A program made the translations under genes and the position numbers. A model generated the notes under the pieces. That model had not been told where the DNA came from and did not search any database. It saw nothing but the letters and a program-made list of their open reading frames with translations. DNA of 32,280 nucleotides. It comes from Catajapyx aquilonaris. Its lineage: Eukaryota. Every line of letters starts with the position of its first letter. Position 1 is the first letter of the stretch. This document shows, piece by piece, positions 73 through 31,958 of this stretch. The stretch spans positions 1 to 32,280 of the forward strand of contig JYFJ02004410.1 in assembly GCA_000934665.2 (NCBI GenBank). Direction: 5' to 3'.

Positions 73-193
73 CTAAGTAAAAGACTCGAATAAAACAGAA
101 GCACATGCCAAGTTCACTGAACTATAAGCACTCATAGGAACTCTATCCAACTCTATTTCAGTACTTAAAATCCTCCCTCATGCAGCAACTCAC

Positions 194-3100: not shown

Positions 3101-6100
3101 TGATTTCCAATGATTAATTATTTATAGGGAAGTGTTACAGATTTCTGAGCCCAAATCTGCTTATTTTTAGGCAGTTACTTTGAAGCATCTACTTGCAGAG
3201 GTTCATAAATATTATATGACCTTAATGCAAAAATATTGCTTACAACTTCAGAATTCAGAACGAACTGTAATAACCTCTAAAAATAATGTACTCACGTAAC
3301 AGGATGGTTGAGCTGGCTACACTTGAACTCTGCGGTGAGTTCCTGCTTGAATTGGTCTCCCTTATGCAGCCAGGTGAGGAAAGCAGTCATCTCATGCCTG
3401 TTCCCAGGCGTAGAGTCGACCAGGGCATAGTATCGCACCTTCTCCTGCGACTGGGTCTCCCGGGTGCTCTTCAGAACAACTGTACGTCCGGGGTACTCCA
3501 GAGTGCTGTCCATGGTGTAGTCATTGCGGTTCTTTCCCCCCTTGGCCACATTGATGGAATAGGCCACCTTCTTCCCCTGACCATAGTTCAGATACCAGTC
3601 GTGCTGCAAGTGATCGTCCTTCACCTCGGTATTTCCCTCCACATTCACGTCCACGTCATGGGTGGGAGCATGGATCTTGATCTTGTGGTGCACTTCAAAG
3701 TCATGTGCAGATGCAACACGGTACTGGGCCTCGAGTGAGACCAGGTGAGGATGGCCAGAGTGAGTCACTTCCGCTTCATAGAGAATGTCGTGTCTCTGCA
3801 AACATAAAGCAAGAATTATATTTCAAAATGGGCCCACATTTTATGCCTAACTTTACTAGAGTGGTCTATTCTCTAGTGTGTTTTATTTACAGAGAAATCC
3901 CTGAACGTGCACACAGTTTACCTCTACAAGCTGAAATTTTTCCCACACAATTTGTAATCTGTGGCATCATTCAAATGCCTCAATGGAATATCTTACAATT
4001 ATTGAAAACTATCAGCTGCATCTGCAGTTACCAATTCAAACATAAAATTATCCTACAATCAGCACAAATAAAATGTAACTTACAGGGCTTCCATGTCCAA
4101 TCTTTTGAATGAAGCGAGCATTAGTGTTGTGATCAGGATACTGGGATGACTGGAAGTCAATGGTGATCTTGTCGGTGTGGGAGTCACCTTCCGGTGTACC
4201 AATGTACTTTCCATTGAAGGAGGCGGTGTGGTCTTGCTTGCCATACTTGGTCTGCATCTGCAATGCGTAGCTCTCTGGTCCTTCCTTGGCTGCAAAGCCG
4301 TTCAAAAAGAACTTTCCGGCAAAGCTGTCCAGCTGGAAGTTGTTAATCGACAGCTTCAGGAATGGATTCTGGTCCACCTGCACTGAGCCTAGAAAGAACA
4401 CACGACTTTTAAAAAGGAGCCACTCCCATCCACCACTTACTCTTATGGATAATGATTGATTATGTCCATCCTTCGTTTCAGTAAAATCTGCTTACCCTTC
4501 AGGGTTACGAAATGATCTTTGACAGCGGGACCAGTCTTCAGGTTCACATCCAGCTTCTGGTCCTTGACATAGGTGACACGCCCACTTAAAACTTCTAGTA
4601 TTTTCTCATTAGGGCCTGAGTATTCAATACTTGGGGTGAAAACAGTCTTCTTGTTCTGCTGCTTGACGTCCAGGTTGATCTTGCCATAGTACTTCTTGCC
4701 ATCCTCACTGGCCCATCCCTGCACACCCAAGGTTGTATCCGAGTTGATGAAGTTAACTGTTAGGAATAAAAATTGCATATGAAAATCTATAAGAAAAGCA
4801 AAGTGTGCAATAGGTGGTAGATGCAAAGCAGTGCTCAATATTGCATTGGCCACTACAAACAATTTCCAATTAACTTTGTGTCATGAACTGTACACTGTAA
4901 CATTTTAAGTTGATAAGGCAAGACCCTACAACAAATGTGGAGTAAAGTTATTGAACATCACATATGGCAATATTTTCATTAACATGCAGACTTAAGCTGC
5001 AAGCAATATGGTCATATAAATTGAGTGCGAATAAAATATTGCAGGGAAATAAATGTACTAACCCTTAAGAGTCTTCTTGGGAGCCTTCAGTTCAAAGATA
5101 GCCTGCTGATGTGGCTGCTCACTGTAGTCGAACTTGGCTGAAACCATCTTCTCTTCCATGGCTCCAGGAGTCTCAAAGATGAAGTTGAACTCCTTATTCT
5201 TAGGATCTGTAGAGAATGACCATTAAAACACTGCATCCAATTAAAAAGTGAAAACAAATATGCTCACCATCCAGATTGCATGAGAGCCGAAGGTGATATC
5301 CTTCCATGCTGGGACAGTCCTTCTCAGTGGAAATACTGACGTGAGCAGGTCCATTGAGAGGGAAGTCAGGGAAGGCGCGGTCATGGGGGGGAATGGAATA
5401 CGAGCCGCAGACCTTCAAGCCAAGGAAGGCCCTGCTGCACTCCTCACCCTTGTAACTGGCAAAGAATAAAGATGTGCCTTAGAATTAAATCTCACAAGTC
5501 ATGCCGACATATGCAACCATATCATTCAGAATCAAAAGAACTATTCTTCATGCTACAATAAAGTGCACTCTCTTTCAACGTCTCTTCTACAGGATTGCAT
5601 TGAAAAATTCACCTGATTGCAAAAATCCTGTTCTTAATCCTAAAAAATTGCAAAATCAATCTTGCAACTCACTCAGTGGAAGGATCATGAGTGACGGCCT
5701 TCTTGATCTCGTTTTCACCAATATGTTCCACAAAGAAAACATCAGAGTTAAATTCCAGGACATCAACCTTCTGGTTGGGCAGGCCCATCTTAATGTCCAC
5801 TCCCTTTCCTCCAAGAGACTTGATGGTGACAGATCCTCCGCTAGCAGCATGGAGAGTCAGAGTGGAGTGCAGGCCAGACTCGAACTGAGGCAGTTCAACT
5901 CCGAGGCTGAATGCAATCTCGGTGCTAAGGCTAGGCAGCACCTCCAAGTGAAGGTCAGTTGACTTAGGATGCTCATAAATCTGCTTGAAATCCACCTTGC
6001 TGTCCACCTTGATGCCCAGCATGGCCGATCCGATAACATCCAGAACCAGAGGAATACCAGCAATGGTTGGAGTGCAGAGCTCAGCATCAGCAAACGTGGC

Positions 6101-9100
6101 AGCAATGCTCTTGTCAATCTGCTTGTTCTTGGCGGCCTCAATGTACTTGTCAAAATCACCACTATTCACCCAGCTGTCATGTGACTCAGGATCAAAATCA
6201 GAAGAGCGCAGTCCACCCCAAAACTCCTCAGTGCCATATCGGCGGAAGTAGACATCAACAGTGGGTTCATTGCGAAGCTCCTTCTCCACATTAATCTTGT
6301 CGCTCAAGGCCTCTATTTCCTGCTCAGAAACAGAAGGTGGAGGAAGAGCACGCCTGTGGCGATGACGACGCCCACCCTGGCCATCATTCAGCATCTCGTA
6401 GCGGTCACCATTGCGAAGGAAGCCGTTGGGACCCATGGCACTTTCAGCAGCATGCTCAAGACCTTCCAAAAGGATTCCGACCTACAGAAGAAGTAACGAA
6501 GACGTTAAATTGACATTTCCAGCCAAAATGAACAAAAAGTAGATTCATTAACTGATTGAGATTGTCAAGTGTCATTTATGCAACAAAACTGATGCCTCAC
6601 CTCAAGAGCATTGATGGAACGTCCAAATGCATGAATGGTTCCATTGAAGGACAGGAATCTGGGGACGAAGCTCTTGGTGGAGTAGACAATTTCAGCCTGA
6701 GCGCCAAATCCACGGCTCTTCCTGTACTCAAACTCATGCTCCTCAAAATAGGCAGAGAACTTGAGGGGGTCAAATGGATAGTGGTCCTTCAGGTCAACAT
6801 CGTCCAGGATTTCCTTCAGATGGGCCTTGGTTGGGCAATCACTGTCATGGATTGACTTCACATGTGACGAGATGTATGACAGTACTGGATAGGAAAAGAA
6901 GCAAAGTGATTAAGTTGTCAGAGAGAACCATAATAACTAATGACAAGTACTGGATTGCAATTGGTGAAAAACTACTGTTCAATTCTGATAAAGAGTTACT
7001 TCATCGGTTCAGACTAGTATAACAGTCCAACACACCTTGATTAACTTTGTCAGTGTTCAGAACACGCTGGACCACCTGGGCATCCCTCCTCTCAGGGCAC
7101 CTCATCAGCAGCCTGTAGGCCATGATCCTATCCTCAGCCTCCTCCGTGGCATCCTCCAAAACTTGCTGTGCGCTCCTCTTAACCTGCAAATCAAAGGTGA
7201 GTTTCAGCTAATGATTCTAAACCAAATCCTAGCAGGCTTGCTCTGAGCACTGTGTACTAACATCCTTGTTGCATGCATCACGGCGGGCAGCATCAAATGC
7301 AGCAAATCGAACTCTCCAGGGAAGGTCGTGCCTCTGAATGCACCGGCTGACTGCGGAAGCAGCTGGCTCAGTCAGATGGTGGATGTTTCCAAGGGCCTTG
7401 AGGGCATCAATGACATCATCTTCTTCAGAGTGAGTACGGGTAACACACTCATGAGGCAGTTTGCCTGCGAAGAAGTTCACAAGGGTGACGTACTCCTTCT
7501 CCTCAGCGCATTTCTCATTCTCATGGCAGAAGTGGTGGATCACACTGCTGGCAGCCAGGAAAGCCTCCTTGGATTGATCTTTATCCAGGATTTCCTGCAA
7601 AATCATGGGACATATTTACACATTGCATGCTTCATCTTCACCATTTTCCATAATTAAGTGGAAAATGAGTTCCTATCTTATCACAACAAGAGAAGGACCA
7701 AAATTGCAAGATATTACACCAATTTCATTGCAAAATCAACAAGGCCTTCCTTTCCTTACCCTAACATTGATCACCTCAATGAACATGACAAACAATACAA
7801 AACCCACCTTGACTTGGGCAAGGGTGTTGACATCAGGGTGTTGCATGTGCGTCAAGACATGGTAATAGTAGGGCTTATGAGACTCATGGCCTTCCTTGAT
7901 GATTTCACCAGCATAGTTGACAGTTTCAGTAGTCCCAGCTGATGCCAGGGCATGGAAGAACAGGTGACTGTAACACAGAACAAATCACATTATATTCCAC
8001 ATTCTCCACATTTGAAGACTGACTCAAAATCAGCAAATTGCTCTGAGGAAAATGAATATTATATAATATGGAAATCATCATAAGCATTATACCTCACATT
8101 TTTCCTACAACAAAAATACATCACAGACTAAATTAACACTTACTCAGTGTCATCAGACTGTGGGCAAAGGCCACCCTGCAAAATCTGGGTGCGGAGATTC
8201 TGCAGCTGCTCCTTGGAAAGGGTGCGGAACTCATGAACCAGTTTGGAGAAAAGACCAGCGGCCTTGGCCTCCACATTTGACTTAACATTTCCACAGAGCT
8301 GCTGGATGATGGAGCGGGAGGTACCAATTTCACCACTGTGATCCTTTCCAGAGTGATCCAGATGGATGTTGGACAGAACACTGGCTTGACCTGCGAGATG
8401 TGCATCATCACTCTATGTTCTCACCCAGAAAGATGCTTAAAACGAGACTTTTGGTAGGCTACAGTACCGTAGGCCCTGTTGTCCACAGGCTGCTTTCCAG
8501 TGAAACGCAGAGAAGTGTGCACATCCACTGAAGCACCAGCATCCTTGTGGGAGAAGGGCTTGAGATTGTAGGTCTCTTCACACTGCACCTGACTGACGAA
8601 TCCATCACGAAGATCCTGCTTGCAGGTCTGGTGAGCCTTGAACACTGGAACGCTCTGGTATTTCTGCGAAATAAATCAAAGCAAATGTTGAAGTGCATCA
8701 TAACACTAACCTGTCTTAGAAATTTTTTGTGGCATATTCATTCAGTCTGATTTTATATGGCCACTTCATTCTCACCAGGGCACAAGGCTCTAAGTTCCTG
8801 TTATCCTGATTTCGCATTGTAAACGCTTAATTTCATTGTTTCATGTTGGTTTTACTTGTAAGATTTCGGACTCTGATGTCATTAAGACTGTTAGCGAAAT
8901 GAAAAAAACAGGAGACATTTCCCTAAAATCATTTATGAAACATTTACAAGGACAAATTGATACTGACACAATATTTGACATGAAGCTTGTCATTTGGCAA
9001 TGGTTCATATGCTGCATAGAAGATAAGTGCACATTATGCAAGTGCAGTTTTAGAAGCAGATGTAACCTTTGGCACTGCAGTTGCGTCTTCCCTTGAAAGG

Positions 9101-12100
9101 GTCAAATGGAGGTCATTTTAAATAACTTTCCACTGATGACACACTCCGAGAGGAGACACATCAATTAGAAGGGTATGCCAGTGATAGCCAGAGGTGGGAC
9201 CTTTCAAGTGGCAGCTAAATGACCTTACCGAATAGCCAGTGAAGCGGACAGACTCAGCCACGTGGCGGATATCCTCACGGTCACTGCACGTGTTGAGCTC
9301 ACGAGTCTTCTTCACCTTGACATCTGAGCCAGATGCCTCAACATGGTAGGTAGTTGGGCAGCGTCCAGAAACATCAACCTGGAAAACAATATAAATATTC
9401 ATTCACCTTTCCAAGCATGAGCTACATGGCATATGAACAACCTAAATCCTCCATTCTATATCAATATCATACCTATAGAACCATAAGTGCATGAATAAGC
9501 ATTTTTCTTACCTCAACCTGGGAGTACTCTCCGGTGACCAGAGCAGGCAGAGTGTTCTGCAGAGAAGAAGCAATACCCCTAAGGATGTTGGCACTGGAGG
9601 CAGACAGCTGTGGTGGGACACAGAAGGTCTCGATGACTCCGTCCTGGAATCCAACCCGGACAAAGGCACCCTCCAGATCACCAGGGGGGATTGCCTTCCC
9701 ACTGGGAGACTTGATGGATGTGCCACTCAGGTAGATGGCCAGGTCACATTCTGACCTTGGGGTCAGAGTCACTTTACCCTTCAGCTGCACAGTGCTGGAG
9801 TCAGTGGAGGTACCCTTGAGGTTGATGACAGTTTGGGCCTCCCAATCATATTGAAAGCCAGATTTTGTTGACACGTGGAACTTGGGATTGGGTACTGCAA
9901 ACAAAATGTAAGGTTTTTGGCATGTTTATATGACACTATGCACTAGAGACTAGGCAGAGGCGATGATGAGAGCATTGCTTTGTTGGCAGTGATCACACAC
10001 TCTTATTTAATCAATTTCATGGGAGCAATTTCAGTGCAGTGACCCTCCCTTGATTGGTGACTACTCATGCACTCACTCTGCATGAAAATAGCTTCAATAA
10101 GACTTACTATTTCTGCACACAATGTTGCACTCAGGTTGGTCCTGAACAGGAGCTGAAAAACACAAAAGCCATATTTATATAACTAAATTACATGTGCATA
10201 TCTTAACATTTATTTGTTGGGTGTTAGGCTTTTTGCCACAAGCAACTTCTGCCTTAGATCTATGTGCCATCCAAAATGATGCAGCCATAACGTACCCTAA
10301 TTAAACAACGAGTTTAATTACTACAATATGTTCTTAACATTTTTGATCAAACGTATCCTGATGCTATGCAACTATGACAATACAGTGGTGAAGTCGGTGG
10401 AGGAACAAACAGGAGACTATTACTTTATTTTGTAGACAACAAAGGATCATCTTCAAAGCAATGAGGGCATAATGAGGTCTAGAATTTGCCTGGCAATAGT
10501 AATGCTATTTTTAAATTAAGTCTTGAAATTTATAGTACATGGCAGTAAGCTTATAATATTTTTGAAAATGAAAAAAATAGCAGACTGTGATATTGGTCAT
10601 TATTCTTCAACTTTTCGTTATTATCACCGCGATGTCGAAATTCCTTCAAAAAGTCACATTTCGCTAATCTGGTACGCACAAAAAACCGCTTCCGATAATT
10701 CGAGTCGCAAGTCTGAGCAGTGTCTGCAATTCGCAGTCGAAAGGTCAAGGTCACAAGAGATGACCCGCCTCCCGGACCCTGCCCAGGGTCAGGACCCATC
10801 CCACGATAAGAATTTCACACCACGATACGAGGAATTGGCTCAAAGGTCGTTTGGACATCTTTTGCATCTCCAGGAGCAATGATGCTGACCAACAGGGTCA
10901 GAGGTCATCGCCGTGTTGGTAACCGGCAAATGATCGTCGGTATTTGAACATGGAAAATACCCTGCAGGAACGAATAGTGGGCCAAGTGACCAAATGATCG
11001 TCTTCCTGACACAGGACCTACCAACCCCTACACCATATATGAATGTTATGTGACGCAAGTGGTAGAACCATGGAGGATGGTCCATTGGCTCATAGTCAAG
11101 CGGATGCTGTGATTTTATCTGGAGGTCACCCTTCGCGCCCTCTCAACTAGTTATCTCCGGGGCCATTTGACCCTGACCTTGCCCAAGACGTGGAAGACTT
11201 GTCGACGCCACCAAACTAATTATTCAAATCTAACCATGCACTTTGGACCACTCACTCTGTTCCTGGAACCCCCTTATTGACTGGGGGTCACCAAGTGCTT
11301 GATAGGACTGATGTACTGCCAAGTTCAAGTCTATAGCCACCAAATGTCACGAAATATTTCTAAATTTTTATAAAGTTATTGCCACATACCGCAGACAATA
11401 ATTCGATATTATTATATTTTTTCTTCTTCTCTGACGCAACGAGTTTTTTTTCTGCCCATTAGAAAATCCAGCTATAGATGTTCAACTGTAATAGTCTTTC
11501 GCTCTAACTGCACCCGTAATAATAACATTCCTGTCTGATAGTGTAATGGGCACATCCATGACAGAGTGACATCTCTTCACACGCCATATCCTGCCTTCAG
11601 TGTATTTGTCTTTCCCATTACTCAATACTTTGTAATGTCTGATAAATCCAAGCATTTACTTATCACAGTTAGCGTGGGAATGCAATTTAACCCATCGGGT
11701 TTTTGATAATATTTCACGGTTCATTTTAAACTTCCGAAACAAATAATGAGTGCGTGTCACCACACCGGCGGCAGAATGTGTGACAATGTCGTTGACATGT
11801 CGCACGGTGAGTTAATATAGTACATCGAAAATGCAGCAAATGATTCAATACGCGATTATTTAAATGTTAAAAAGTTGCAGCAATCAAGTTACGCCGATTT
11901 TTCCATTTTTGGGAAACTCGTCGCATCCTTTCACATTTCTTTAATTACGGTAATTCAGGTAAAATCTGCAAGTTGAATTTTTCTACACAGGATTTCCTGG
12001 TGTCTCAGAGAGTACGTACAGCCTTCATGATCAGTTCAAATGCAAACGGCAAGTTACTCTCTATAATGAGTACAGCAACATCTGATGCAGACATCAGTTC

Positions 12101-15900: not shown

Positions 15901-18900
15901 TCTGGAAAGTATCATTTGTCCAAAGGACTGCTGTCCACTGAGAAACAGTGAACCTAGTATATAGTTTAACAAAAAATGTCAGTTATACAGTATTGAATTC
16001 ACAGACAACTGGATATGCTCATTTGTTGGAACAATTCCCAAGTGGAAAATAAAATTCTCAGGAAGCAGAGTGCCAAATCTAAAATTATTCTGAGAGATCA
16101 ATTTGTACCAAAGAACCTCGACCTCTCGCACACACTCATCCCGACCTCGCAATGTCATATGAAATCACAGTAGTGCACTAGCCAAGCCGATAAAAATTTG
16201 AAATCTTTCTGGCACATTCAAAGACCCAAAAAGAAAAAAGAAACAAATATAGCTTGCAAGTGCTGTGCTAAAGGCCAGGTCACCCTGTCAATTCGATGTC
16301 ACAAGAGCCTCTCAGCTAGACAAATGCACACCTCCCCTTCATAATGGCAGCTTGGGGTGTAAACACAAATAATTAAATCAACTGGGAGATGAGGACAGAG
16401 TGAGTCGGGGCTCTGGGGGTCATCGGGGCGGGGGTCACTGGTTCTATGCTATGTGACGCAAGCTACTGAATCTGGGTGAGGGGAGAAATGTGGCAATGCA
16501 CTGCATCCAGTACATCTGAACTGAGTGAAAATGATTGCCTTACTGATGGACCAGGATATGGTAACAAGTGATTGTTTGCTGCCTACTTTTCACCTTGTTT
16601 TTCTTGGCATATTTACTTCATTAAAAAAAACAGATTCTAAAAATTTTTGGCACTATTTTCTTCAAATTTGCTAACATCATTTCACACGGTATTCATTATT
16701 TGTGTGCATGAGTGTGGGGTCAACCTTCGTCCAGTGTCAGCCACAACTGCCTCTGTAGCTTGGAACCACTCTTGCACATTGCATGACCACTCGAAGAATG
16801 TCAAATAAATAGTGTGAAAATAACATGTCATCTGTTAGGTCGCAGTAGGTATATCTCAGGATGCACAAACAAGTGCCACAAACACAAAACTAGAGCTGCA
16901 CAAAAAAGTAAAGGTGCATTAAAACTACTTAGTTCACTACAAACAAAACAACAAGGACAGGATGAAAATCCTGTCAAAGACACAACCTCAAACAGGGATG
17001 AGAAAGCAACAACAACAAAAAATCTTCGAAGATCATAAATGACTAAAATACGAAGGGCTAAAAAAGCACCACAAAGCAACCCTGAGGAGTCACGCACCAA
17101 ACACAAACAAAGACTACGGTCCCCTCCCGAGAGCTCTGCATGCTAAAATACCCATTCTCTCTCTCCCATTCATTCTCTCCAACTAGGACTGGCAAAGTAT
17201 TTGTACTTGTGTGTATATGAACGTGTATATGTATCTTAATATGTTTGTGCCATTAACCAAGTAGTGGTTGGAACTTGAAAATGAAACTTGTCATCTGCTG
17301 AAAGCTTTGCCAGAGCACACTCACTCTTGAAAAAGCAGACGTATCCCCCCACACACAAAAAAAAATACAAATTTTAGAAAAACCAGCAAACTGAACTAAA
17401 CTGCACTGGTGTGCACTCAGGGAGCACTTGTCACAATTGCAAGAACAAAAAATTAAAGTTACACAACAATAATACATAATTGTTGTCGATTTTTCAATGA
17501 TACTCTCGTCAGCTTCTTCTTTGCAGTGTGCATGGGTGTATTACATGTGATTATGATCCCTCCATTTATACTTTTTTTTTCTTTTTTATTTGGGGTTTTA
17601 CTTTTGTAGTCTGGAGGGCCTTGTCATTCTTCCCCCTCCAAGGCTCCACACATATAAAAAAATAAATAGTTAAAAATCGGTGAGCAAATGTGACTGTGGA
17701 ACGAGCACAGACTGTGCCTACAAGGATAAGTTTTCTTCCTTTTTTTGTATTAGTTACTACTGGGTGTAAAGTGGGAGAGAAGGAGACACTCTCTCATACA
17801 GGATCTGCATGTAAACCATCACATTCTTAATGCTGCCAACTACTGTCCATTTCATGGGGGAATAATATTATTTAAAGCAGGGAGTTAATTCATCACACAT
17901 CCCAAGATCCATCTTAACGGAACCTTACGGGATATAAATGAAGGTGCAGAGAAGATTGAAATCCAATTACCCAGAATTCATCAAAATATATTAACTTTCC
18001 ATCTTTATCATTATGTCTACCGTGTCTTCATAGAATGAAAAAGTAAAATCACAATTATGAATTTCAACCCCAACTTGCATGGGAATCACAATCACAAATT
18101 GCCTGCATCATTTTCAAAAGCAAGCCAAAGTTCACGTTTTTATTGGCATTCGGTTATATTTCACACTCATGCTCTGCACCTCCACATAAATTTCTCCCGT
18201 TGGGCTCATCTCAATACCACATGTTCCAAATTCACATCAGATATCCAAAGAGTAACCTGACATACACATTAATACCATCTGAGACTTCTTGCTTATTTGG
18301 TAACGCGAGATGACCTTGTCAAGTCCTACAGCAATCTCTCCCCACTCCTGCATTTGTCACACTTGAACACTGTGGCATACATATGCACATGTGTCAGGCT
18401 CCTACTCCTAATAATTTGGTGCATAACGTTAGCCAACATCCTTTTCATTGTATGCGCCTACTCACATTCCTTGAAGTAATACCATAAAATACCTGCAGGA
18501 ACAAGCTACTCCACAGGTAATAATTTTGGGTGCTCTTATTCAAAATGGTACCCAATTTCCAAGAGAAACCTACATGCCATTAGTGAATGGTATGAGGATG
18601 TCAATATTATGTGGTTCACTGTCCTGGACTTAGTCTGTATTATAGTATCTCATCATAAAAATCATAAATAAATATTAGGAAACAATCAAATTAATCAGCA
18701 AATCAGTTTCCATATTTAAACTTTGAGCAGCACTTTTTCTATGTCAATAAAAAAGCATCAGCATGAGTAGAACTAATAAAGCTTCACATAAATATCCACT
18801 CTTATTATTTACTGTACATGACAAATATCACAACAGATGCCACAGTCTAACTGATGCCAAGATGCCATTGGAAGAAGGAAAATCTCCAAATAGCAATTTC

Positions 18901-19011
18901 CCCCCAACTGTACCGGGTCCACATACCACAGTATGTTATGATAAATCAGATCATTTCCTAAATAATCAAATTTCATCATAATATCATGTTAGTTCGAGTT
19001 AGAGTTAGTTA

Positions 19012-19175
19012 GAGAACACTAGTAGCCTAGGGGCCTGTTGCACCAAGCACGGTATATGATAAGCCCACGGTTCTTTTGGAAAATCCATACAAATTTGTAT
19101 GGATTTTCCGAAAGAACCGCGGGTTAATCATATACCGCGCTCGGTGCAACAAGCCCATAGGCTACTAGTGTTCTC
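19012..19175. repeat. 164-bp near-perfect palindrome (MITE-like hairpin)
   Basis: gagaacactagtagccta...ggaaaatccatacaaa|tttgtatggattttcc...taggctactagtgttctc. Arms are 82 bp with about 8 mismatches and no spacer; centre at 19093/19094. Confidence 0.92.
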
Positions 19176-20835
19176 CATGGCATTTGTCTGCTACCCAAGG
19201 AACAGAAAAATTAGTACTAACCCAAATGGGTACAAAAGCTATTCACTTGTGGACAGCAAAGCCATTGTATGTCAGACTACATTTGGAACCTGGTTTGCAC
19301 AATCATACAGTGTGTCTCATAATTTCCTTTGGTAAGAGTAATTAGCACAGGACAAGTTTCAGTTGGTAGCCCACCATCCCCTTGACAAAATAATCTTTGG
19401 AGTGCAAAACACTGTGCAATTCGTTGAGCACATCGTCAGCTACCAACTGCTCTGGAACCTACCAGTTAATTGTCTTTGTGCTAAAAACTAGCCATACATG
19501 CACTATCAGACACCATGTACATATGGAGCACTTCCACACAATGCCAAAAATTTCCTTTGCATGTCACTAAAAGCAAACAAGAGTTGTGCTCACAATAACC
19601 ATACTACAAAATATCACACTGTTCCACCAGCCCTAGTAACAGGAGCAAGGAGAGGGCTGGCCATCGTGTAGAAAAAAAAAAACACTCTTCCCATCTCATT
19701 ATCTCAGTACCAAATTCATGAAAAGTGAGAGTCTGGAACAAGTCATGATCACACACTTCATTACGAAATTATGTAATGATGAATAATCATGAACAGTGAT
19801 TTTAGCTGTAACCAACATCATCATGCAGTGCTGACAAAAGGCTGGCAATACTTAGACTTTACTAGATACAAGGTGGTGCCAAAGAGCATTTCCTCTGAGA
19901 CTTTAAATTCTTGCGAATTTCTACAACAAAATTACCATAGTTGATTTAGGTGATTTATGCTTCATTACAAAAATAATATGCATGACAGGAAACTCATGTA
20001 GTGGAGATGTTGGGGAGAAGAGTTCACACCCTTGGCACCACCCTGCATGTGAGCAGCTGAAGGAAAGAATCGATACACAATTAGCCCAACACTTGCCGAC
20101 ATTTCTTTAGGATGGAAGTGATGCAAGGAAGGCACTGTTCCACTTGCTGGGTGGTTTTGTGACTTGAGCACCTTATGTCACCACTGCACAATTGTATCCC
20201 ATCACAGCTGAAACACCTGTACTGTAGATAAAAATTGCATGTGTTCATGTGTCTCAGTAATAAAGTACTAATCATGATTGCCAATCCAATCCTTGCAACT
20301 AAAAACATGAACTGTGGACTGAAACATTTCAGTTACCAAAATGTGACGCACATCTTTCACTTTAGTTCCATGCAAACATACTGTAGGCAAATAAAATAAC
20401 TGGATCTTGTGAAATGTACTCATCGCTAGTCTCAGAAGTAGCTCCCAACTTTAACAACTCTTGCACATCAAAGACATATCCACCTTACTTCCCTCTGGCT
20501 TGTACTCCCACTTTAGAAATACTTGCCCTAGACATAACAACGCTACGCATTATTGCTAACCCCAGGAATGGCAAGACCACAAGCCATGAGCAGCACATGG
20601 CTCAACCTAAAAAATATTACTGGGGATACAGGGCAGATTTAACAGGGAAGGAAATAAAAATATAATGTCTGGTGCCCAGACCCTAAAATCTTTGGTATAT
20701 CTACCCAGCGCAAAAGGGGAAATAAAACCAGGCACACGCTGTAAAGCCTCTTAGTGACAAAAACCTACATACACCTTATGTACAATTGAGAGAAGGATGG
20801 TGTAATGGACAGTAGTGTACAACTGCGTTTTTGTT

Positions 20836-21288
20836 TCAATCAAACACAATAGAGCAGGAGGACGAGTAGCTGCTCCCGACGCTGAACTGAAATGGCACCT
20901 CTAGCGCCAGGCACAACTTGGTCCCTTCATCCCTGACCCCAGTGTCAACACTGCCCTCATCTTGCACACTCACCCTAACCTCTTCACTGGTAACTTCCTG
21001 GCCTGAGGTGGCCACTACACGACGGAAAACAGCAACCCCATGGACTGCAGCTGATGGGAATAGCAGTGGGGCCATGCGCTTCTTCGAGTGCATCACAACG
21101 GGCAGGGGGAGCTGCTGGGGTTGGTGGGGAGAGTGAGGAGAGGAGGAAAGGTGGGGTTGGGATCGGGAGTAAGGGTGATGGAGGTGGTGGTGGTGGTGGT
21201 GGTTGTAGTGATAGTGACTGTGGGAATAAGGAGAACGCTGGGGATGGAAACGGTACTCCAGTGTCAACAACATTAATTCGTCACAGCG
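20836..21288 (-). CDS. Candidate stop-codon readthrough extension of ANKRD13C (150 codons, His/Pro/Ser-rich)
   Basis: TTA TGA CGC TGT GAC GAA TTA ATG...: the 145-aa ORF 20836-21273 in the ORF track is exactly in frame with the ANKRD13C UGA (21289-21291), with no intervening stop. The stop context is UGA-C. Confidence 0.45.
   Translation of the reverse strand, partial: RCDELMLLTLEYRFHPQRSPYSHSHYHYNHHHHHHLHHPYSRSQPHLSSSPHSPHQPQQLPLPVVMHSKKRMAPLLFPSAAVHGVAVFRRVVATSGQEVTSEEVRVSVQDEGSVDTGVRDEGTKLCLALEVPFQFSVGSSYSSSCSIVFD
21183..21203 (+). repeat. (GGT)n microsatellite (poly-His codons CAC on minus strand)
   Basis: ggtggtggtggtggtggtggt seen directly. Confidence 0.85.
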
Positions 21289-24200
21289 TCATAAGTCAGG
21301 AAACCTAGAAGATAACGACAGCCTCATTAATACTCTCTCTTCCAGTTGAAATGCAAGAGAGTGTAATGCTTTTCTTCATGGCAATTTTCATTTGAAGTAC
21401 CCGTTATGGAAACACCCCAACTCCAGGCGCAGAGCATTGGAGTTGGGATGTGTCCATAATGGGTGCTTCATTTAGAATCAGCATCCATGCATCTGAATCC
21501 AACAAGCCCCCCGGTACAATTTCAAACACAGGTACTTTGGTGGCCAATGTCATTCGTTTGTTTTCTACTAACCAGGGCAGGTGTTTAAAATTGGCAAATC
21601 CTAATTGTTTTATATTCAAAATGCATTTTTTAAATGCATAATATAAACTGGAATCCAACATAGTACTTATTTCATAACACATTTATTGCAAGAATCTGCA
21701 CGTAATCCCTGTTCGGAAAATGTGGAAACCCCACCAGCTGCACTAATCTGGTGCACTTCTCTAAACAAGCCTGGAGGTGATTCTGTGTGGAGAAACTAAT
21801 TTGGGAGTAGTGCAGCCCTAGTATTTAACTACTTAAAGCAGACTGTTGAATGGCCTGAGTTCATACTCAAGTGTTGACTCTGAATATGCCCATATTTAAT
21901 TTTATATGCGCAAATGTTTTCCTCTTGAATTAGTTTCCATCATCCCATAATAAATAAGATAACTAATAAGTTCCCAACGAGTGGTACATCATGATGAAAC
22001 TGGTACTGTGCGGGAGAGAAATCAGATCATATCCATATGTCTGATTTCATTGATACGGATGTGAACTGATGACAGTTTTGTGAGGTATAGCCTGTGTTTG
22101 TGCAACCAATTAAACCAATTACAGATGAATGAACTTGGCTGTTGCCAGATAAATAAATTCTGGCATGTTTACCAGTAAATAACCACAGCTTTTAGGTAAT
22201 TTAATTGCCCATGGAACCAGAATACAAAAATATCATAACAAAGTCACTTTGAAAATGTGATAACGTTTCCTAAAAAATGGAAGCATAAACATTACCGGTG
22301 CGGATTCTCCTGATAGTCTTCTGGGATTTCAAAGAGATGTGCTGAGAGATCGTTCCGGAAGCAGAACTCCTGGAATGTGATCTTAGCTGTGACAGTGGGC
22401 AGGATGGGTATGTCGATCTTTACAGGGAATCCGGGTGGCAGCTTCATCTGTACAAACTCCCGCAGCTTCTTGAAATGTTTGAATGGGGCGATCACTTCCA
22501 AGACATTCAGCAAGGTGTCCACTGATAAGGGGAAATCCTGGCTCTACAAAGAGAGGAAAAGAAATTAATGTTGTAGATAAAAAATTCCAAACTGTGCAGT
22601 ATTCCCAATTTTGTTATTCTTGCTAAAACCATCAACACATTCTTCTTCACAGTTACTTTTCTTGTGCATAGCGTCATCACATATTTACCACCCCCCCCCC
22701 CCCCTTCTCCTTGCATTGAATAACTCGCACATCTATCAATTCAGTATTAAAATGAAATTACTTATCTGAAATTCAGATAAGGGGCACTTACCATGGCAAC
22801 AGTGGCCTTGAATGCCTTGGAGCTCTCTTTACATATGAGCGGTCTCCCTAGACATGGCCAGCACCCTGCCTCTGCCTTGATGTACTCTTCCCATGTGACC
22901 TTCGAGGTTGCAGGTGGAGAAAGGCTTTGCCTCCTGAGCGTCTGTGCCATCTCCCCATTTAGGTCAAAACTGGTAGATGACCCCTTGGTGAGGCTCTCCA
23001 TCATGGCTTTGTTCTTCTGAAGGTCTTCCTCAGTCAAGTGTTCCCTCCTCTTTCGGCTCTCAAGAACAATCCCATTAAGAACATAAAACTCAGCAGGAAA
23101 CGAGCCTACCATCTCCTTTCGATCCTCTCTAAAGAACCACCCAGTCTGTGCGCGAGTAAAGGTGATGGATTTTGTAGACATCTGCGCAGCCACTATGTCA
23201 GTGCTCATCAGTAGGTCAACCTCATCCTCCACCTCCACCTCAGTTTCTTCATAGCGCACCCTTTGGAACACTCTCTGGCGGTTGTCAAGCACCACCAGGT
23301 TTTGACTGGGCTTGGCATCCCCCTTGAAGAGGAAGCTGATGTCCCCACGCTCCCACCGCATGTCGTTGAAGTCCACTAAGGTTGTGTCCAGGCGAATGGA
23401 GCTGCCCTGCTTGTAGATCTTGCAGATGTCAGATGGGAGTATGCGAGACACCAGAGGCACTGAGCAAAGAAAAAAATCAATTATGCTAAGTCCTTCAATA
23501 TCCTAAATTTAATTTTCAGTGTCACATTCCACTTCTCCCATTCACTACAATAGTTAGCAGTGAATAAACTCATCATCTGGGGAAGGCGCAGTGGCCGAGA
23601 TGATAACGTCTCGGCTTGCTGAGCGGAAGGTCCCGGGTTCGATCCCCACCCGGGATTTCCCTTCCACCTGCGTCAGTGGGTCTCTGACCGCGCCTAAGAA
23701 GGAGTCTTGGCAACCTAGCCTTCTGGGGGACTGCGCATGACCCATTTCTGACATTGCACTTGCATCTGTGTCCCCTCCTCAAAAATCCCTATCCTTACAC
23801 CATGTCCTTTCATCCTTGCACTGGAGTCAGAAGAAAAATTAGAAAATTGCAGGAAAATGGTGGTATTCCACGCCCCTATAAGGGCCTACGGCCCTATCAC
23901 GGGCTAACGTAATAAATAAATAAATAAATAAACTCATTATCTCACCTCATGATAAGTGCATACTTGAGAGAAACTGCTTTCGGGTAAGTATTCTTTTGTG
24001 ACAATTGCATCCCACTTGTGTCCTCCCATTATCTAAGCTACGTCAGGCAGCTGTTGCACTCACAATTATTTTCTTACACAATACTCATCAACTCTCTTCT
24101 AAAGTATCCCTTATTATGTCACCTTGTTACTCCAGCAGCATTCCTGTCCAATAGAAATTGCTGAACCACTTTTAAAGATACAACCACGAGAAGCAAGCTA

Positions 24201-26051: not shown

Positions 26052-26427
26052 CTTTCATGGCACCCTACCCACCCCTCCGCTCCCCTCCCTCCACCCTCCT
26101 TCCGATTATATTTATTCCCTTCCCCCCTCTTTTCAGGCCCGAGCAGCAGGGGGCGACACCTACGCGGATTGAAGATGGAAGGACAGGCCCTGTTCCCACC
26201 GCTGACCCGACACTGGACGCCTGCTGTCCCGGACACCCACCGAAAATCATTCATGTTCCGAAAATCATGTTCGAAACAGAACGATCATGTTTTATTGGGC
26301 GCCATTTTTAAATCTTCAAGATCGCATCGATACTATCCCGCCGTATCGATATTATCGTTCTCGAACCTCTGCATGGTTAGTTGCTTCGGGATTGTTGAAC
26401 CTACTGAGCGCGCTCGCTGGCCAAAAG
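26052..26427. promoter_or_regulatory. Bidirectional housekeeping promoter shared by ANKRD13C and MRPS34
   Basis: Divergent ATGs with 376 bp between them, CpG-rich. DRE TATCGATA at 26344-26351 and CATCGATA at 26325-26332. YY1-like CGCCATTTT at 26300-26308. Confidence 0.75.
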
Positions 26428-27041
26428 ATGCCGATCAAGTACATTGGGAAGACGACCAACTTCAGGGGCAACACCCTGTGGGAGATTGTGTGCAACCTGC
26501 GTGATTTTGGGGTAGGAAGAGTGGTGGTACGGAGCGTGTTTGAGCGATACCCGGAGCCCACGTACTTCCGGATACTCAAGGCAGAGCCGGACATGGATGA
26601 GAAGAATCCGGGTGGACGCTTGTTGGTCCAAAAGGTCTTCAGGGGACGGCCATTCCCTCAGGAGTATGACATCAGCAAAATTGCGTACAAGCCAGACTAC
26701 AGGCTGCTCCACAAGCATGAGGAAGAAGCGTACTGCAGATACACGCCTCCAAAGGTAAAGTATAACTGCAAGTGTCTCCAAACATTCTACTGAACCGACT
26801 TTGTTTGCAGGACGTGCAGGAGCGGATCCTTCCAAGGCACATGCCCCTCCCTCCTGTCCTGAAGGAGCTGGTTGTAGAAGAGAGGAAGCAGAGGGGGGTG
26901 AAGGAGGAGCCCATGGTCACCATGTCGTATCTGAATACCTGGTACAACAACTACCGCATAGCCAAGGATGGGGAGAAGCCAAACGCATCTGACTTTGGGA
27001 AGAAGCTCCTGTACATTGAGTTTCCTCAAAAGCAATCGTAA
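26428..27041 (+). CDS. MRPS34: Mitochondrial 28S ribosomal protein S34 (mS34), 185 aa
   Basis: Exons 26428-26754 and 26811-27041 with a 56-nt GT-AG intron. MPIKYIGKTTNFRGNTLWEIVCNLRDFGVGRVVVRSVFERYPEPTYFRIL...VFRGR...YKPDYRLL...MPLPPVLKEL is the arthropod mS34 signature. Confidence 0.93.
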
Positions 27042-30100: not shown

Positions 30101-31958
30101 GTATATGTAAAACTCCTAAGTTCTGTGGTTGATTGATTGATTAGCTAACCAGGCAGCCTGATCCCTAATTCAGTGCTCTTAATGCTGAGCAACACTTCTT
30201 AAAGTCATGACACTAGCATGCAGCATACCTCCAGTGGTCATGTACCGCTGAAGTGGTCCTGCCACACGAGCTGCAGGAATGGCAAGGTTGATCCTGGGGA
30301 AGACAACTCCAGTCCGTGAATCATTTGCAGTGCAGACAGGTATGCCTATCAGTTCCCCCCATTTGTTGACTACAGCTCCTCCTGATGTGCCACCCTGGAC
30401 ACAGCCAGAGGTCGAGAACAGGTCTTTCGATGGAATTCCACACACCACACCCAGCGAAGCTGTCGCACCCATGCAGAATGACTCATCAAAGAGGGAGAAG
30501 CCCATAGTGTATAATTCATCACCTGCAAGATAAACGCATGAGCCTAGAACTACAGCACTAGGAAACACTGACCTCTCTGTAGTGGGGCAGTCGAGAGTGA
30601 AAGAGGACTAGCCCCTTTGATTGGTGGACATTGAAGCACAGCCACATCAAAAGCTCTCCCTTCACTCGAACGGAACACTATCTCTGCTTCTACAGGCCAG
30701 TTTTGGTACCTTACTGAGACAGCCTGAAAATTGATGACTTGTATGCATGAAACATGAACTAGAAACTAGATGGTGTGATACATAAAAAGGGAATATATCC
30801 ATCTGATAACATTATTCCAGATTCTGAGATTTTTTTTGTTACCTTCAAAAAGTCATTTTGTTCCTTAGCAATGGGGAGAAGAGGATGAGTGGAGAGTGGA
30901 GAGTGGTACAATTCAATAATAAAAGCTTATGCATTTCTCTGCGAAAGAGTCAGCCCAAGATAAGTTCGCATGATTTTCTTGGTCTTTCCACCCCCATGCA
31001 TGTGGTGAAATATGGAGAAGACTGGCTTTTCTGCTTCACACATGCATCTGTAAAAATGACAAATATTAACAATGTGCAATCCATTCTCACCTGCCCATTG
31101 GCAGATTCCCTCAGCACATGTGCACAGGTGACCACCACGGAACCCTCAACCTTTGTCCCTTCAGCAGATGGCCACACAACACCAGATCCCCAAGACCTCC
31201 CGCACCTCACCATAACCAGACCTTCGGCCACCTTGTCCAACAGCTCATGTTCTGTCCCATGTATCTCCTGCACTTTCAACTTTTGTAATTTCTCTGGCAA
31301 ATTGCTATACGTAGCCCAGCAACTCAGGATCTCTTGCAATAAGGCCACGAGTGAAGCTCCAATAGTGAACCCAACCCATTCCCCCCGCCTCCAACACACT
31401 GGTGCCAAAACCATCCCAACTGCAGTTTCACCTCCTGGTCGTACTATTGGGGCACCTTCACAACCAGGAGCAGCACTGGCATCACACAGTAAGAAGATGT
31501 TTTTTGGACCACCAGCATTGCTAACAATTCCCCTACTGAGGCTGCCCATGAATATTCGAGGGGCTACATGGCCAAATGGGGTTGAGTCGATGTAGATAGT
31601 TGAGCCACGCAATGGTCGTTCACACTGCTTAAGCACAGTCACAATGAAGAGGTGCATGTTCTTCATGAGGAAGTTGTGGTGGATGCGTGGGCTTGTGGTG
31701 ACTAGAAGAACTATTGGGAAGAACAGCCGTGCATGTGGCAATTCCTGCATTGAAAAAGGTTTATGAGAAGCTCAAATATGAGCCATCCAATGTCACTGCA
31801 CAACACAAACCTCTGGATCATCCAAAGTCCATCCAGCTGAGGCCCTCAACAAGTTGTTCGCTGTTTGCTGCAAGTGGTGGCTGCAGAACACACCAACAAT
31901 TCTTCCATCTAACACGGGCGATCTCTCTTCTGACATGCCATGGTAGTTGTTTCCTGGC
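27069..31958 (-). CDS. TYSND1: Peroxisomal leader peptide-processing serine protease (trypsin domain containing 1); 5' end uncertain or possibly beyond the window
   Basis: Exons (minus): about 31811-31958 (acceptor uncertain), 31091-31744, 30573-30723, 30229-30522, 27069-27163. Degenerate first protease domain STPFG...SLSRGIVSN...LCDASAAPGCEG. Second domain WGSGVV, VVTCAHVL (His), AFDVAVL (Asp), GGTSGGAVV (Ser), PRINLAIP. The C-terminus ...VQRNWRLDLDDPIPKSKL* carries a PTS1. Confidence 0.9.
27218..28210. mobile_element. Non-autonomous piggyBac-type foldback MITE (~993 bp) in last intron of TYSND1
   Basis: TIRs CCCCTTGA..CC..C..CTAGAATCT.GG.GCTGAGAACTCGACCGCCAGGTAC at both ends, flanked by ATAA (left) and TTAA (right). 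Internal arms are also inverted (about 27530-27790 versus 27830-28095). No transposase ORF. Confidence 0.85.

Follow-up and report, generated by a model that had tools for sequence, protein, structure and literature searches.

ANKRD13C and the frame beyond its stop codon

The window, by which we mean the whole 32,280-nucleotide stretch of Catajapyx aquilonaris DNA that was analysed, carries on its minus strand a gene whose exons match the Pfam family ANKRD13_C (E 8.7e-26 and 6.4e-38) as well as ankyrin repeats. In exon-by-exon tblastn comparisons, the main exon shares 72-77% identity with arthropod ANKRD13C (77% being the best identity to any ANKRD13C), and the penultimate exon shares 75-84%. 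With its ankyrin repeats, its ANKRD13 C-terminal domain and a protein end that reads RFPDL, the gene has the features of an ANKRD13C orthologue, and the identity proposed by the first-pass annotation is borne out. The following features bear on the question of what happens at the end of this gene.

22296..22543, minus strand: penultimate coding exon (exon 6) of ANKRD13C, matching Pfam ANKRD13_C at E 8.7e-26
21289..21304, minus strand: coding portion (16 nt) of the last exon, G TTT CCT GAC TTA TGA, encoding (R)FPDL-stop, from the sequence
21288..21291, minus strand: first stop and its context, TGA at 21291-21289 followed by C at 21288, from the sequence
20839..21288, minus strand: 150-codon second open reading frame in frame 0, the frame of the ANKRD13C stop (stop-to-stop 20836..21288)
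20836..20838, minus strand: second stop, TGA followed by A, from the sequence
21079..21228, minus strand: codons 21-70 of the second frame, His/Pro/Ser/Gln-rich and C-rich with low complexity (C 50%, G 8%), by composition
20839..21078, minus strand: codons 71-150, unremarkable in composition, with codon usage that is coding-like only in frame 0, by log-likelihood
21217..21238, minus strand: candidate alternative 3' splice site, ...cgttctccttattcccacag/T, with its AG at 21219-21218, predicted from sequence only

Read directly, exon 6 ends ...CAC CG/gtaatg (the slash marks the junction), with 22296 as its final base and the donor GT at 22295-22294, and its terminal CG forms bases 1-2 of an Arg codon. 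The acceptor of the last exon is ...cgttatcttctag/G, in which ttctag directly precedes position 21304. Both of these sites bear out the proposed splice into a terminal coding piece of only 16 nucleotides. Among the 120 ANKRD13C homologues listed, the last residues are RFPDL in 78, RFPEL in 5 and RFPDI in 4, and so the annotated stop has the conserved, canonical location. Roughly 20 of these 120 proteins have ends other than the RFPD/EL type.

The stop at this position is UGA with C at +4, a combination that is enriched among the readthrough candidates of flies and mosquitoes (PMC5100048 and PMC13278127). Beyond +4 the context deviates from the extended motifs described in PMC13278127, with G at +5 and U at +9, and the +5 and +9 biases reported for the top-tier fly genes are unmatched here. 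The second stop is followed by A, and A at +4 has been linked to efficient termination (PMC13278127). After the first TGA, frame 1 stays open for 4 codons, frame 2 for 1 codon and frame 0 for 150. These counts agree with the earlier description of a UGA-C stop, a 150-codon extension and two other frames that close within 5 codons. Its caveat about C-rich composition and a further open frame of about 100 codons was equally well placed: one more minus-strand frame (20984..21280) runs for 98 codons, and on the plus strand three frames remain open over 70-104 codons across the C-rich core.

Open-frame length by itself exceeds chance expectation only modestly and is weak evidence. Dinucleotide shuffling of the 450 nucleotides kept frame 0 open in 182 of 20,000 trials, and shuffling within four local blocks did so in 115 of 20,000. 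Because 0.6-0.9% of composition-matched shuffles stay open, some frames of this kind are to be expected by chance in any genome. We must therefore weigh the view that the frame is accidental, a G+C-rich, low-complexity stretch of 3' UTR that happens to contain no frame-0 stop and yields no useful translation. These shuffles fit that view, as does a survey of frame-0 length behind the ANKRD13C stop across 11 lineages, in which the excess was not significant (shuffle and Fisher tests, p 0.06 including the window and 0.10 excluding it). We nevertheless consider such an accident rather unlikely, since the UGA-C context and the precedents for coding tails in this gene argue against it, as does the codon usage described below.

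A block of elevated G+C content (0.50-0.63) starts at the first stop and finishes at the second, with flanks of 0.35-0.47, and this coincidence counts in favour of readthrough. No stable RNA structure was found downstream of the stop (z -0.66). This would fit an accidental frame, although it is weak counter-evidence because only about 10% of readthrough candidates have such a structure (PMC5100048). On the minus strand, the first AATAAA or ATTAAA lies at 18144, 3147 nt past the stop, and the poly(A) signal has no bearing on the tail either way. The UGA is not explained by selenocysteine, to judge from a search of 17500-21500 in which no SECIS family of Rfam appeared at E up to 5. The element was also absent from six other loci searched in the same way (L025, L026, L028, L002, L007 and L011, with only 425 nt of flank available for L028).

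Coding signal in the distal tail and its possible sources

To examine the tail beyond its length, we used a codon model trained on 2738 codons from the window's own exons, under which true exons score from -0.01 to 0.53. By this measure the first 70 codons carry no coding signal. Codons 21-70, whose His run is encoded by a period-3 tandem repeat (21174-21203), give z values of 0.2 to 0.6 with all training exons and of -2.8 to 1.5 with subsets of them, and several frames are open here on both strands. This low-complexity segment is what an accidental open frame would look like.

Codons 71-150 are different. Their log-likelihood is 0.296 in frame 0, as compared with -0.13 and -0.25 when they are read in the two alternative frames, and the frame-0 score was reached by none of the stop-free dinucleotide shuffles in sets of 1000, 400 and 500 (z 3.0-3.1). 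All 50 of the window's non-coding open frames with 60 or more codons likewise fall below it (z -1.87 to 2.23). The signal persists under models trained solely on vitellogenin exons (z 2.5) or solely on the ANKRD13C and protease exons (z 2.8), and lower scores were obtained for the antisense frames (z 0.5 and 1.9). Frames 1 and 2 contain stops throughout this region, which, like the codon usage, speaks against an accident of composition. Codons 71-150 look like real coding sequence, with usage akin to that of the window's exons. The codon test lends support to this distal part of the earlier proposal that a 150-residue tail may be translated, its exon-like usage being specific to frame 0. No such signal is seen in the His/Pro/Ser-rich stretch formed by codons 1-70.

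A coding signal behind a stop codon might be reached by splicing rather than by readthrough. If exon 6 were joined at 21218/21217 instead of 21305/21304, the FPDL-TGA would be skipped and frame 0 would be entered at codon 24. The predicted product, ...R-HYHYNHHHHHH..., would carry a 127-residue tail and would need no readthrough. The candidate acceptor falls on an in-frame AGT, the only one of nine in-frame AGN codons to lie behind a pyrimidine-rich tract (0.75), and the coding signal is confined to the region downstream of it. Alternative C-termini are, moreover, frequent for ANKRD13C in insects, as the roughly 20 divergent ends among the listed proteins indicate. In Hymenoptera an alternative last exon with the tail ...YGAYLTMMMVLHTASC replaces or hides the RFPDL end with a lineage-specific sequence, and on an ant-like contig (L001) this tail is a separate exon within the last intron. 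No such exon was found in the window, and the alternative tails of hymenopterans, hemipterans and mosquitoes have no counterpart within 19000-22400. Splicing would give no reason for the 23 codons between the stop and the candidate acceptor to be open, as they are, and the excess of open frame 0 in flies and mosquitoes has been ascribed to readthrough instead of splicing (PMC5100048). We regard alternative splicing as an improbable source of the tail.

Still less probable, in our estimation, is some other coding role, present or recent, for codons 71-150, as a downstream open reading frame, an unannotated exon or a decayed remnant whose frame matches that of ANKRD13C by coincidence. The confinement of the signal to these codons would suit such an origin, as would ATG triplets at codons 66 and 72 and a donor-like GGTGAGT at 20974-20968. 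However, that donor-like motif occurs 10 times on the minus strand of the window, and the codon signal does not drop past it (z 2.45 before and 1.73 after). This origin would also demand a one-in-three coincidence of frame together with an open link back to the stop, and no homologue of any kind came out of the searches described below.

Relatives of the tail and of the stop

An exhaustive HMMER search of 1.84 billion protein representatives returned no credible relative of the 150-residue sequence. Its sole matches, proteins of 5384 and 678 residues (P0121 and P0122), are bacterial and were rejected as repeat-inflated, each consisting of 5-12 near-identical Ig/PKD-like repeats that individually match the tail at about 29 bits and 29-34% identity. 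A search of the Protein Atlas with the tail gave no usable match, and a single-sequence AlphaFold model of its last 85 residues was uninformative (mean pLDDT 37). This want of relatives and of a predicted fold is again what a frame kept open by accident would show.

In an annelid-like lineage sampled by metagenomics (loci L025, L026 and L028, proteins P0124-P0126), ANKRD13C has a tail of 47-57 codons behind RFPDL-UGA. Between L025 and L026, the third codon position accounts for 18 of the 20 differences in the tail, with a dN/dS of 0.029 in the tail and 0.025 in the upstream coding sequence. Insertions and deletions are in frame, the tails share a common end, and the alignment decays past the second stop. 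Judged by this substitution pattern, six annelid-like sequences carry a post-UGA tail that is under purifying selection. Over 44 residues, the nearest named proteins to this lineage are those of annelids and a nemertean, which places it probably outside Pancrustacea.

These annelid-like genes resemble the Catajapyx gene in having RFPDL-UGA at the equivalent position with an in-frame tail behind it, and differ from it in the shorter tails with conserved ends, in the absence of an intron before FPDL and in the lack of detectable similarity between the tails themselves. We rejected homology of the tails, since a profile of the six annelid-like sequences ranks ours 647th among 2688 decoy frames. 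Pairwise comparisons gave BLASTP E values of 0.024 and 0.22 and Smith-Waterman z values of 3.2 and 2.0. A common hydrophobic motif just past the stop, suggested by the window, the ant locus and L025, was likewise set aside, as pairwise tests were unsupportive (z 0.1 for the window against L002). Three further loci with UAG-G stops (L014, L015 and L005) have similar tails (z 11), with differences spread 15/15/18 over the codon positions. They were not accepted as coding evidence because a conserved UTR element would be indistinguishable from coding sequence.

Within arthropods, a quick gene tree of ANKRD13C places the animal inside Pancrustacea (SH-aLRT 98), outside the winged insects and Malacostraca. 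At least 5-6% of fly and mosquito stop codons are estimated to be read through, and an abundance of readthrough has been inferred for Pancrustacea (PMC5100048). The earlier appeal to pancrustacean readthrough is thus supported, the placement by our tree and the abundance by that study. The Catajapyx gene shares with the pancrustacean readthrough candidates the UGA-C, a long G+C-rich second open reading frame, a segment that is disordered and of low complexity, and a host within Pancrustacea. The evidence for those fly and mosquito candidates comes from ribosome profiling or from coding signatures across several species, whereas the case made here rests on a codon test in a single genome.

A possible precedent in the same gene family exists in Drosophila melanogaster. 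We take CG5742 to be the fly ANKRD13-family gene, an assignment that is only indirectly supported. A table of PMC1929063 labels CG5742 'Ankyrin repeat', and CG5742-RA is recorded as a readthrough candidate with TGA-C and 42 codons in row 533 of supplement file 2 of PMC5100048 (Jungreis et al. 2011 and 2016). According to that listing, its TGA-C is that of the gene studied here and its tail is 42 codons long versus 150. In the same supplement, the mosquito orthologue of CG5742 is AGAP009954, which is listed as non-readthrough, and the fly and mosquito stops are marked as not orthologous. Arithmetic on a link in that supplement divides the 90-nt prologue of AGAP009954 into 74 nt and 16 nt of the last exon, so that its terminal coding piece would equal in length the 16-nt piece of the Catajapyx gene. 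CG5742 is absent from the main text of PMC13278127. Our literature searches found nothing relevant on ANKRD13C readthrough, and none that links CG5742 to ANKRD13 or deals with AGAP009954.

Vertebrates offer a more distant comparison. AQP4, MDH1, OPRL1 and other vertebrate genes undergo readthrough at UGA-CUAG and acquire short tails. The likeness extends to the UGA, the C at +4 and an extension that alters the protein end, although the vertebrate context is CUAG versus CGC here and the vertebrate tails are short.

A possible longer form of ANKRD13C and what it might mean

We find it plausible, at about even prospects, that a longer form of ANKRD13C is made by readthrough of the UGA-C. The main frame most likely terminates at this leaky stop, and some ribosomes, a minority, would incorporate an amino acid at the UGA and read on through 150 codons to the UGA-A. 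The product would be a second protein form, about 151 residues longer, in which the conserved RFPDL would no longer be a free C-terminus. RFPDL would be followed first by some 20 residues of mixed type, then by a disordered spacer of roughly 50 residues rich in His, Pro, Ser and Gln, and finally by a tail of 80 residues that seems to be constrained at the protein level. The stop, its context, the open frame and the coding-like usage over codons 71-150 are observed directly, whereas the occurrence and frequency of readthrough, like any function of the tail, are inferred. Masking of RFPDL by the tail, or the provision of a new interaction surface, would be guesses at such a function. The earlier suggestions of metal binding, condensates and a basic SKKR patch are guesses of the same kind.

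By itself, the Catajapyx locus is still a candidate. Taken with the other lineages, one stop appears to be read through in unrelated animals with unrelated tails, in CG5742 of the fly, in the six annelid-like sequences and possibly in this animal. Unrelated tails behind one stop suggest that what is selected is the covering of the C-terminus, or readthrough as such, and not any particular tail. We tentatively raise the possibility, which we would not call likely, that ANKRD13C is a recurrent and perhaps ancient readthrough gene of protostomes. On such a reading, RFPDL-COOH would be a functional C-terminal signal that is hidden by lineage-specific tails, in a fraction of the molecules each time, in flies, in the non-insect pancrustacean studied here and in the annelid-like group.

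Conserved readthrough outside Pancrustacea is thought to be rare, and the annelid-like genes would, if this reading is true, provide a case of it. An ER-associated chaperone would then exist with two C-terminal states produced from one mRNA. For the Catajapyx gene, if the extension is real, any annotation would lack about one quarter of the protein's length, and the best-conserved feature of ANKRD13C, its free RFPDL end, could be switched at the ribosome.

The end of ANKRD13C and the frame behind its stop

The minus strand of the window carries an orthologue of ANKRD13C that begins with an ATG at 26051, its exons having been placed by tblastn with three arthropod proteins as queries. Pfam recognizes ankyrin repeats and the ANKRD13 C-terminal domain in its product. 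The 3' end of the gene was read from the sequence as follows.

22296, minus strand: last base of the penultimate coding exon (exon 6), which ends ...CAC CG before gtaatg
21304, minus strand: start of the last exon, after ...cgttatcttctag, with the coding part G TTT CCT GAC TTA TGA
21291-21289, minus strand: first stop, TGA, with C as the next base
20839-21288, minus strand: second ORF of 150 codons in the frame of the ANKRD13C stop, closing at TGA-A (20838-20836)

Given these exon ends, the protein terminates in RFPDL; among the 120 homologues listed, 78 share this end and 9 more have RFPEL or RFPDI, and by sequence comparison the annotated stop sits at the canonical place. The first-pass annotation had described this splice, the RFPDL-TGA-C end and the 150-codon frame, and every detail is confirmed. 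As it had also stated, the other two minus-strand frames close soon after the TGA (after 4 and 1 codons), and the further open frame of which it had warned is present, with 98 codons (20984..21280) across the C-rich part.

The bases behind the stop, CGCUGU, do not agree with the biases to A at +5 and G at +9 described for top-tier fly readthrough genes (PMC13278127, section 7). No stable RNA structure was found after the window stop (z -0.66); according to PMC5100048, such structure is present in only about 10% of published readthrough candidates. Selenocysteine at this UGA is unlikely, since no SECIS-type match was found in 17500-21500 of the window.

Coding signal and other origins of the tail

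By length alone, the 150-codon open frame is at most modestly more than chance. Dinucleotide shuffling of the 450 nt left frame 0, the frame of the ANKRD13C stop, open in 182 of 20,000 trials; with the shuffling done in four local blocks, this happened in 115 of 20,000. Codons 21-70, counted from the start of the second ORF, are 50% C and 8% G, with a period-3 repeat that encodes a His run, and stops are scarce there whatever the frame.

The second half of the tail is coding-like, unlike the first. A codon log-likelihood model was trained on 2738 codons from the window's own exons, with the non-coding trinucleotides of the window as background. The training exons came from ANKRD13C and two neighbours on the same strand.

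158-9925, minus strand: large vitellogenin-like lipid-transfer gene with many exons, downstream of ANKRD13C
30179-31771, minus strand: two long open frames with Pfam Trypsin_2 (E 5.6e-07), a domain of trypsin-like peptidases

The former has a Pfam Vit_open_b-sht match (E 2e-26) on exon 5669-6481, and the latter probably form a gene of their own upstream of ANKRD13C. Codons 71-150 scored 0.296 in frame 0 versus -0.13 and -0.25 in the other frames, where true exons of the window span -0.01 to 0.53. This value was matched by none of 1000, 400 and 500 stop-free dinucleotide shuffles of the same codons (z 3.0-3.1), and z was 2.5 with vitellogenin-only training and 2.8 with ANKRD13C-plus-peptidase-only training. 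For calibration, the window's non-coding open frames of 60 or more codons, 50 in all, gave z from -1.87 to 2.23, none of them reaching 3. Both halves of codons 71-150 add to the signal (z 2.45 and 1.73), whereas it is absent from codons 1-23 (z 0.7) and 24-70 (z 0.2); plus-strand frames across the second-ORF DNA are lower (z 0.5 and 1.9). Furthermore, a block of 0.50-0.63 G+C spans first stop to second stop, with flanks of 0.35-0.47. We consider a chance open frame behind the ANKRD13C stop somewhat unlikely.

The tail might also be reached by splicing. AGT codon 24 (21219-21217), one of nine in-frame AGN codons, stands behind a strong pyrimidine tract (...cgttctccttattcccacag, then T), and exon 6 spliced to an acceptor there would drop FPDL-TGA with the frame kept. 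Alternative ANKRD13C ends are frequent in insects. The hymenopteran alternative tail, found in an ant-like contig (L001), differs in having its own exon inside the last intron; it is an alternative last exon, not readthrough, and no counterpart of it was found in 19000-22400 of the window. For the window tail, we judge an alternative 3' splice site improbable, yet a serious rival to readthrough. L001 is 97% identical to a Solenopsis protein, with its exon-6 match at 1011-1259, and its alternative C-terminus (...YGAYLTMMMVLHTASC) lies in a small exon about 400-450 nt 3' of that match and 5' of the FPDL exon. Two mosquito isoforms (P0094 and P0103) are annotated with the end ...RFLIYFIDFLIYDLSISDT, not ...RFPDL; this end may arise by splicing within or after the 16-nt piece.

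Another coding origin, such as an independent downstream ORF, would be permitted by ATGs at codons 66 and 72, and a donor-like GGTGAGT lies at 20974. However, there are 10 GGTGAGT-like motifs on the minus strand of the window and the codon signal runs on beyond 20974; we hold such an origin to be very improbable.

No credible relative of the tail emerged when 1.84 billion representatives were searched exhaustively with HMMER, and an Atlas search with the tail gave no match. Two HMMER matches were rejected: both are proteins of bacteria that carry many near-identical Ig/PKD-like repeats, and their E-values were inflated because weak repeat matches were summed. Folding the last 85 residues from the single sequence gave an unconfident model (mean pLDDT 37).

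Host lineage and published precedent

The top ANKRD13C identities of the window, 72-77%, are to polyneopteran insects and malacostracans. A quick tree of 39 rows, built by maximum likelihood with SH-aLRT as the sole branch support, places the window within Pancrustacea (98) and outside both the winged-insect clade (99) and the malacostracan clade (100). PMC5100048 describes readthrough as 'abundant' in insects and in the single crustacean examined, not in a centipede, and puts the number of stops that are read through at 600 or more (5%) in A. gambiae and 900 or more (6%) in D. melanogaster. The candidates of these two species have TGA as the stop in 61-76% and C after the stop in 49-63%, each range covering ancient and clade-specific sets (PMC5100048).

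In the literature searched, no paper tied ANKRD13C by name to readthrough. The fly gene CG5742 is presumably a member of the ANKRD13 family. Supplement file 2 of PMC5100048 counts D. melanogaster CG5742-RA among its candidates for readthrough, with TGA-C and a 42-codon second ORF (row 533), an entry taken over from a 2011 candidate list; the file marks the mosquito orthologue AGAP009954-RA as non-readthrough and the fly and mosquito stops as not orthologous. CG5742 is annotated 'Ankyrin repeat' in a table of PMC1929063. By arithmetic on the supplement link of PMC5100048, the 90 nt preceding the AGAP009954 second ORF comprise 74 nt of one exon and 16 nt of the last exon, a piece like the 16-nt terminal piece of the window ANKRD13C. 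These two likenesses indirectly support CG5742 as an ANKRD13-family gene.

The readthrough proposed in the first-pass annotation is partly supported. It is favoured by a UGA followed by C, the exclusive frame, coding-like usage in codons 71-150, a G+C block matching the ORF, a host within Pancrustacea and two gene-level precedents; against it stand the signal-free, low-complexity first 70 codons and the failure to find a relative of the tail. We see an evenly balanced case that the ANKRD13C stop would be read through into the 150-codon tail.

The same stop in other animals, and neighbouring elements

Metagenome contigs scanned with an ANKRD13C alignment yielded 28 loci, and the end of the reading frame was placed in 14. 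At these ends and that of the window, the stop is TGA in 8, TAG in 5 and TAA in 2, and frame 0 behind it is open for at least 37 codons at 10 of the 15. Per-locus shuffles pooled over 11 lineages gave no significant frame-0 excess (Fisher p 0.06 with the window, 0.10 without). One group stands out clearly, with annelid-like tails in several loci and proteins.

L025:2139-2297: annelid-like ANKRD13C tail
L026:3407-3565: annelid-like ANKRD13C tail
L028:3136-3303: annelid-like ANKRD13C tail
P0124, P0125 and P0126: homologous proteins with annelid-like tails

At the three loci, RFPDL-TGA is followed by 47-50 codons; across loci and proteins the tails have 47-57 codons, and two motifs and the second stop are conserved. 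The L025 and L026 tails differ at 20 places, 18 of which are third codon positions, with 17.5 synonymous versus 2.5 non-synonymous changes, and dN/dS is 0.029 in the tail and 0.025 in the 33 codons upstream. The L028 tail has in-frame indels (dN/dS about 0.22) with both tail ends kept. Past the second stop of these loci, the alignment falls to 30-52 identical of 99-112 aligned bases. An L025 query with TGA as W found four predicted proteins with the TGA called as Trp, of which one is L025 itself and the others are three additional species-level sequences with the same two motifs and linkers of variable length. No SECIS-type match was found in the three loci. The annelid-like tail bears a coding signature of the readthrough type at this same ANKRD13C stop. 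For the 44 residues before that stop, the nearest named proteins, from Paralvinella, Capitella and Lineus, belong to two annelids (80% and 73%) and one nemertean (75%), and the lineage with this signature is probably outside Pancrustacea.

Should readthrough of ANKRD13C occur in several lineages, its tails would be lineage-specific. The window tail was compared with that of L025 (BLASTP E 0.024; 7 of 500 shuffles as similar), and against a profile of six annelid-like tails it ranked 647th among 2688 decoy frames; its assignment to the annelid-like tails was rejected because this rank does not support the weak pairwise similarity. A common motif right behind the stop was likewise rejected (window versus ant locus, z 0.1). 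Three divergent ANKRD13C loci have a TAG-G stop and a conserved stretch just behind it.

L014:3593-3712: conserved post-stop stretch
L015:636-746: conserved post-stop stretch
L005:3265-3456: conserved post-stop stretch

The stretch reaches a protein-level z of 11 between L014 and L015, and differences among the three loci are even over codon positions (15/15/18), which fits a UTR element or a coding tail alike.

Two further kinds of element lie near ANKRD13C in the window.

19045-19140 and 21394-21468: two inverted repeats that form hairpins
26206-26793, plus strand: 195-codon open frame of ordinary composition, adjoining the ANKRD13C start on the opposite strand

The inverted repeats, one of which sits within the last ANKRD13C intron, both have matches on either strand to several unrelated microRNA models, far below gathering scores, and look like small palindromic repeat elements. 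The 195-codon frame may be a divergently transcribed gene.
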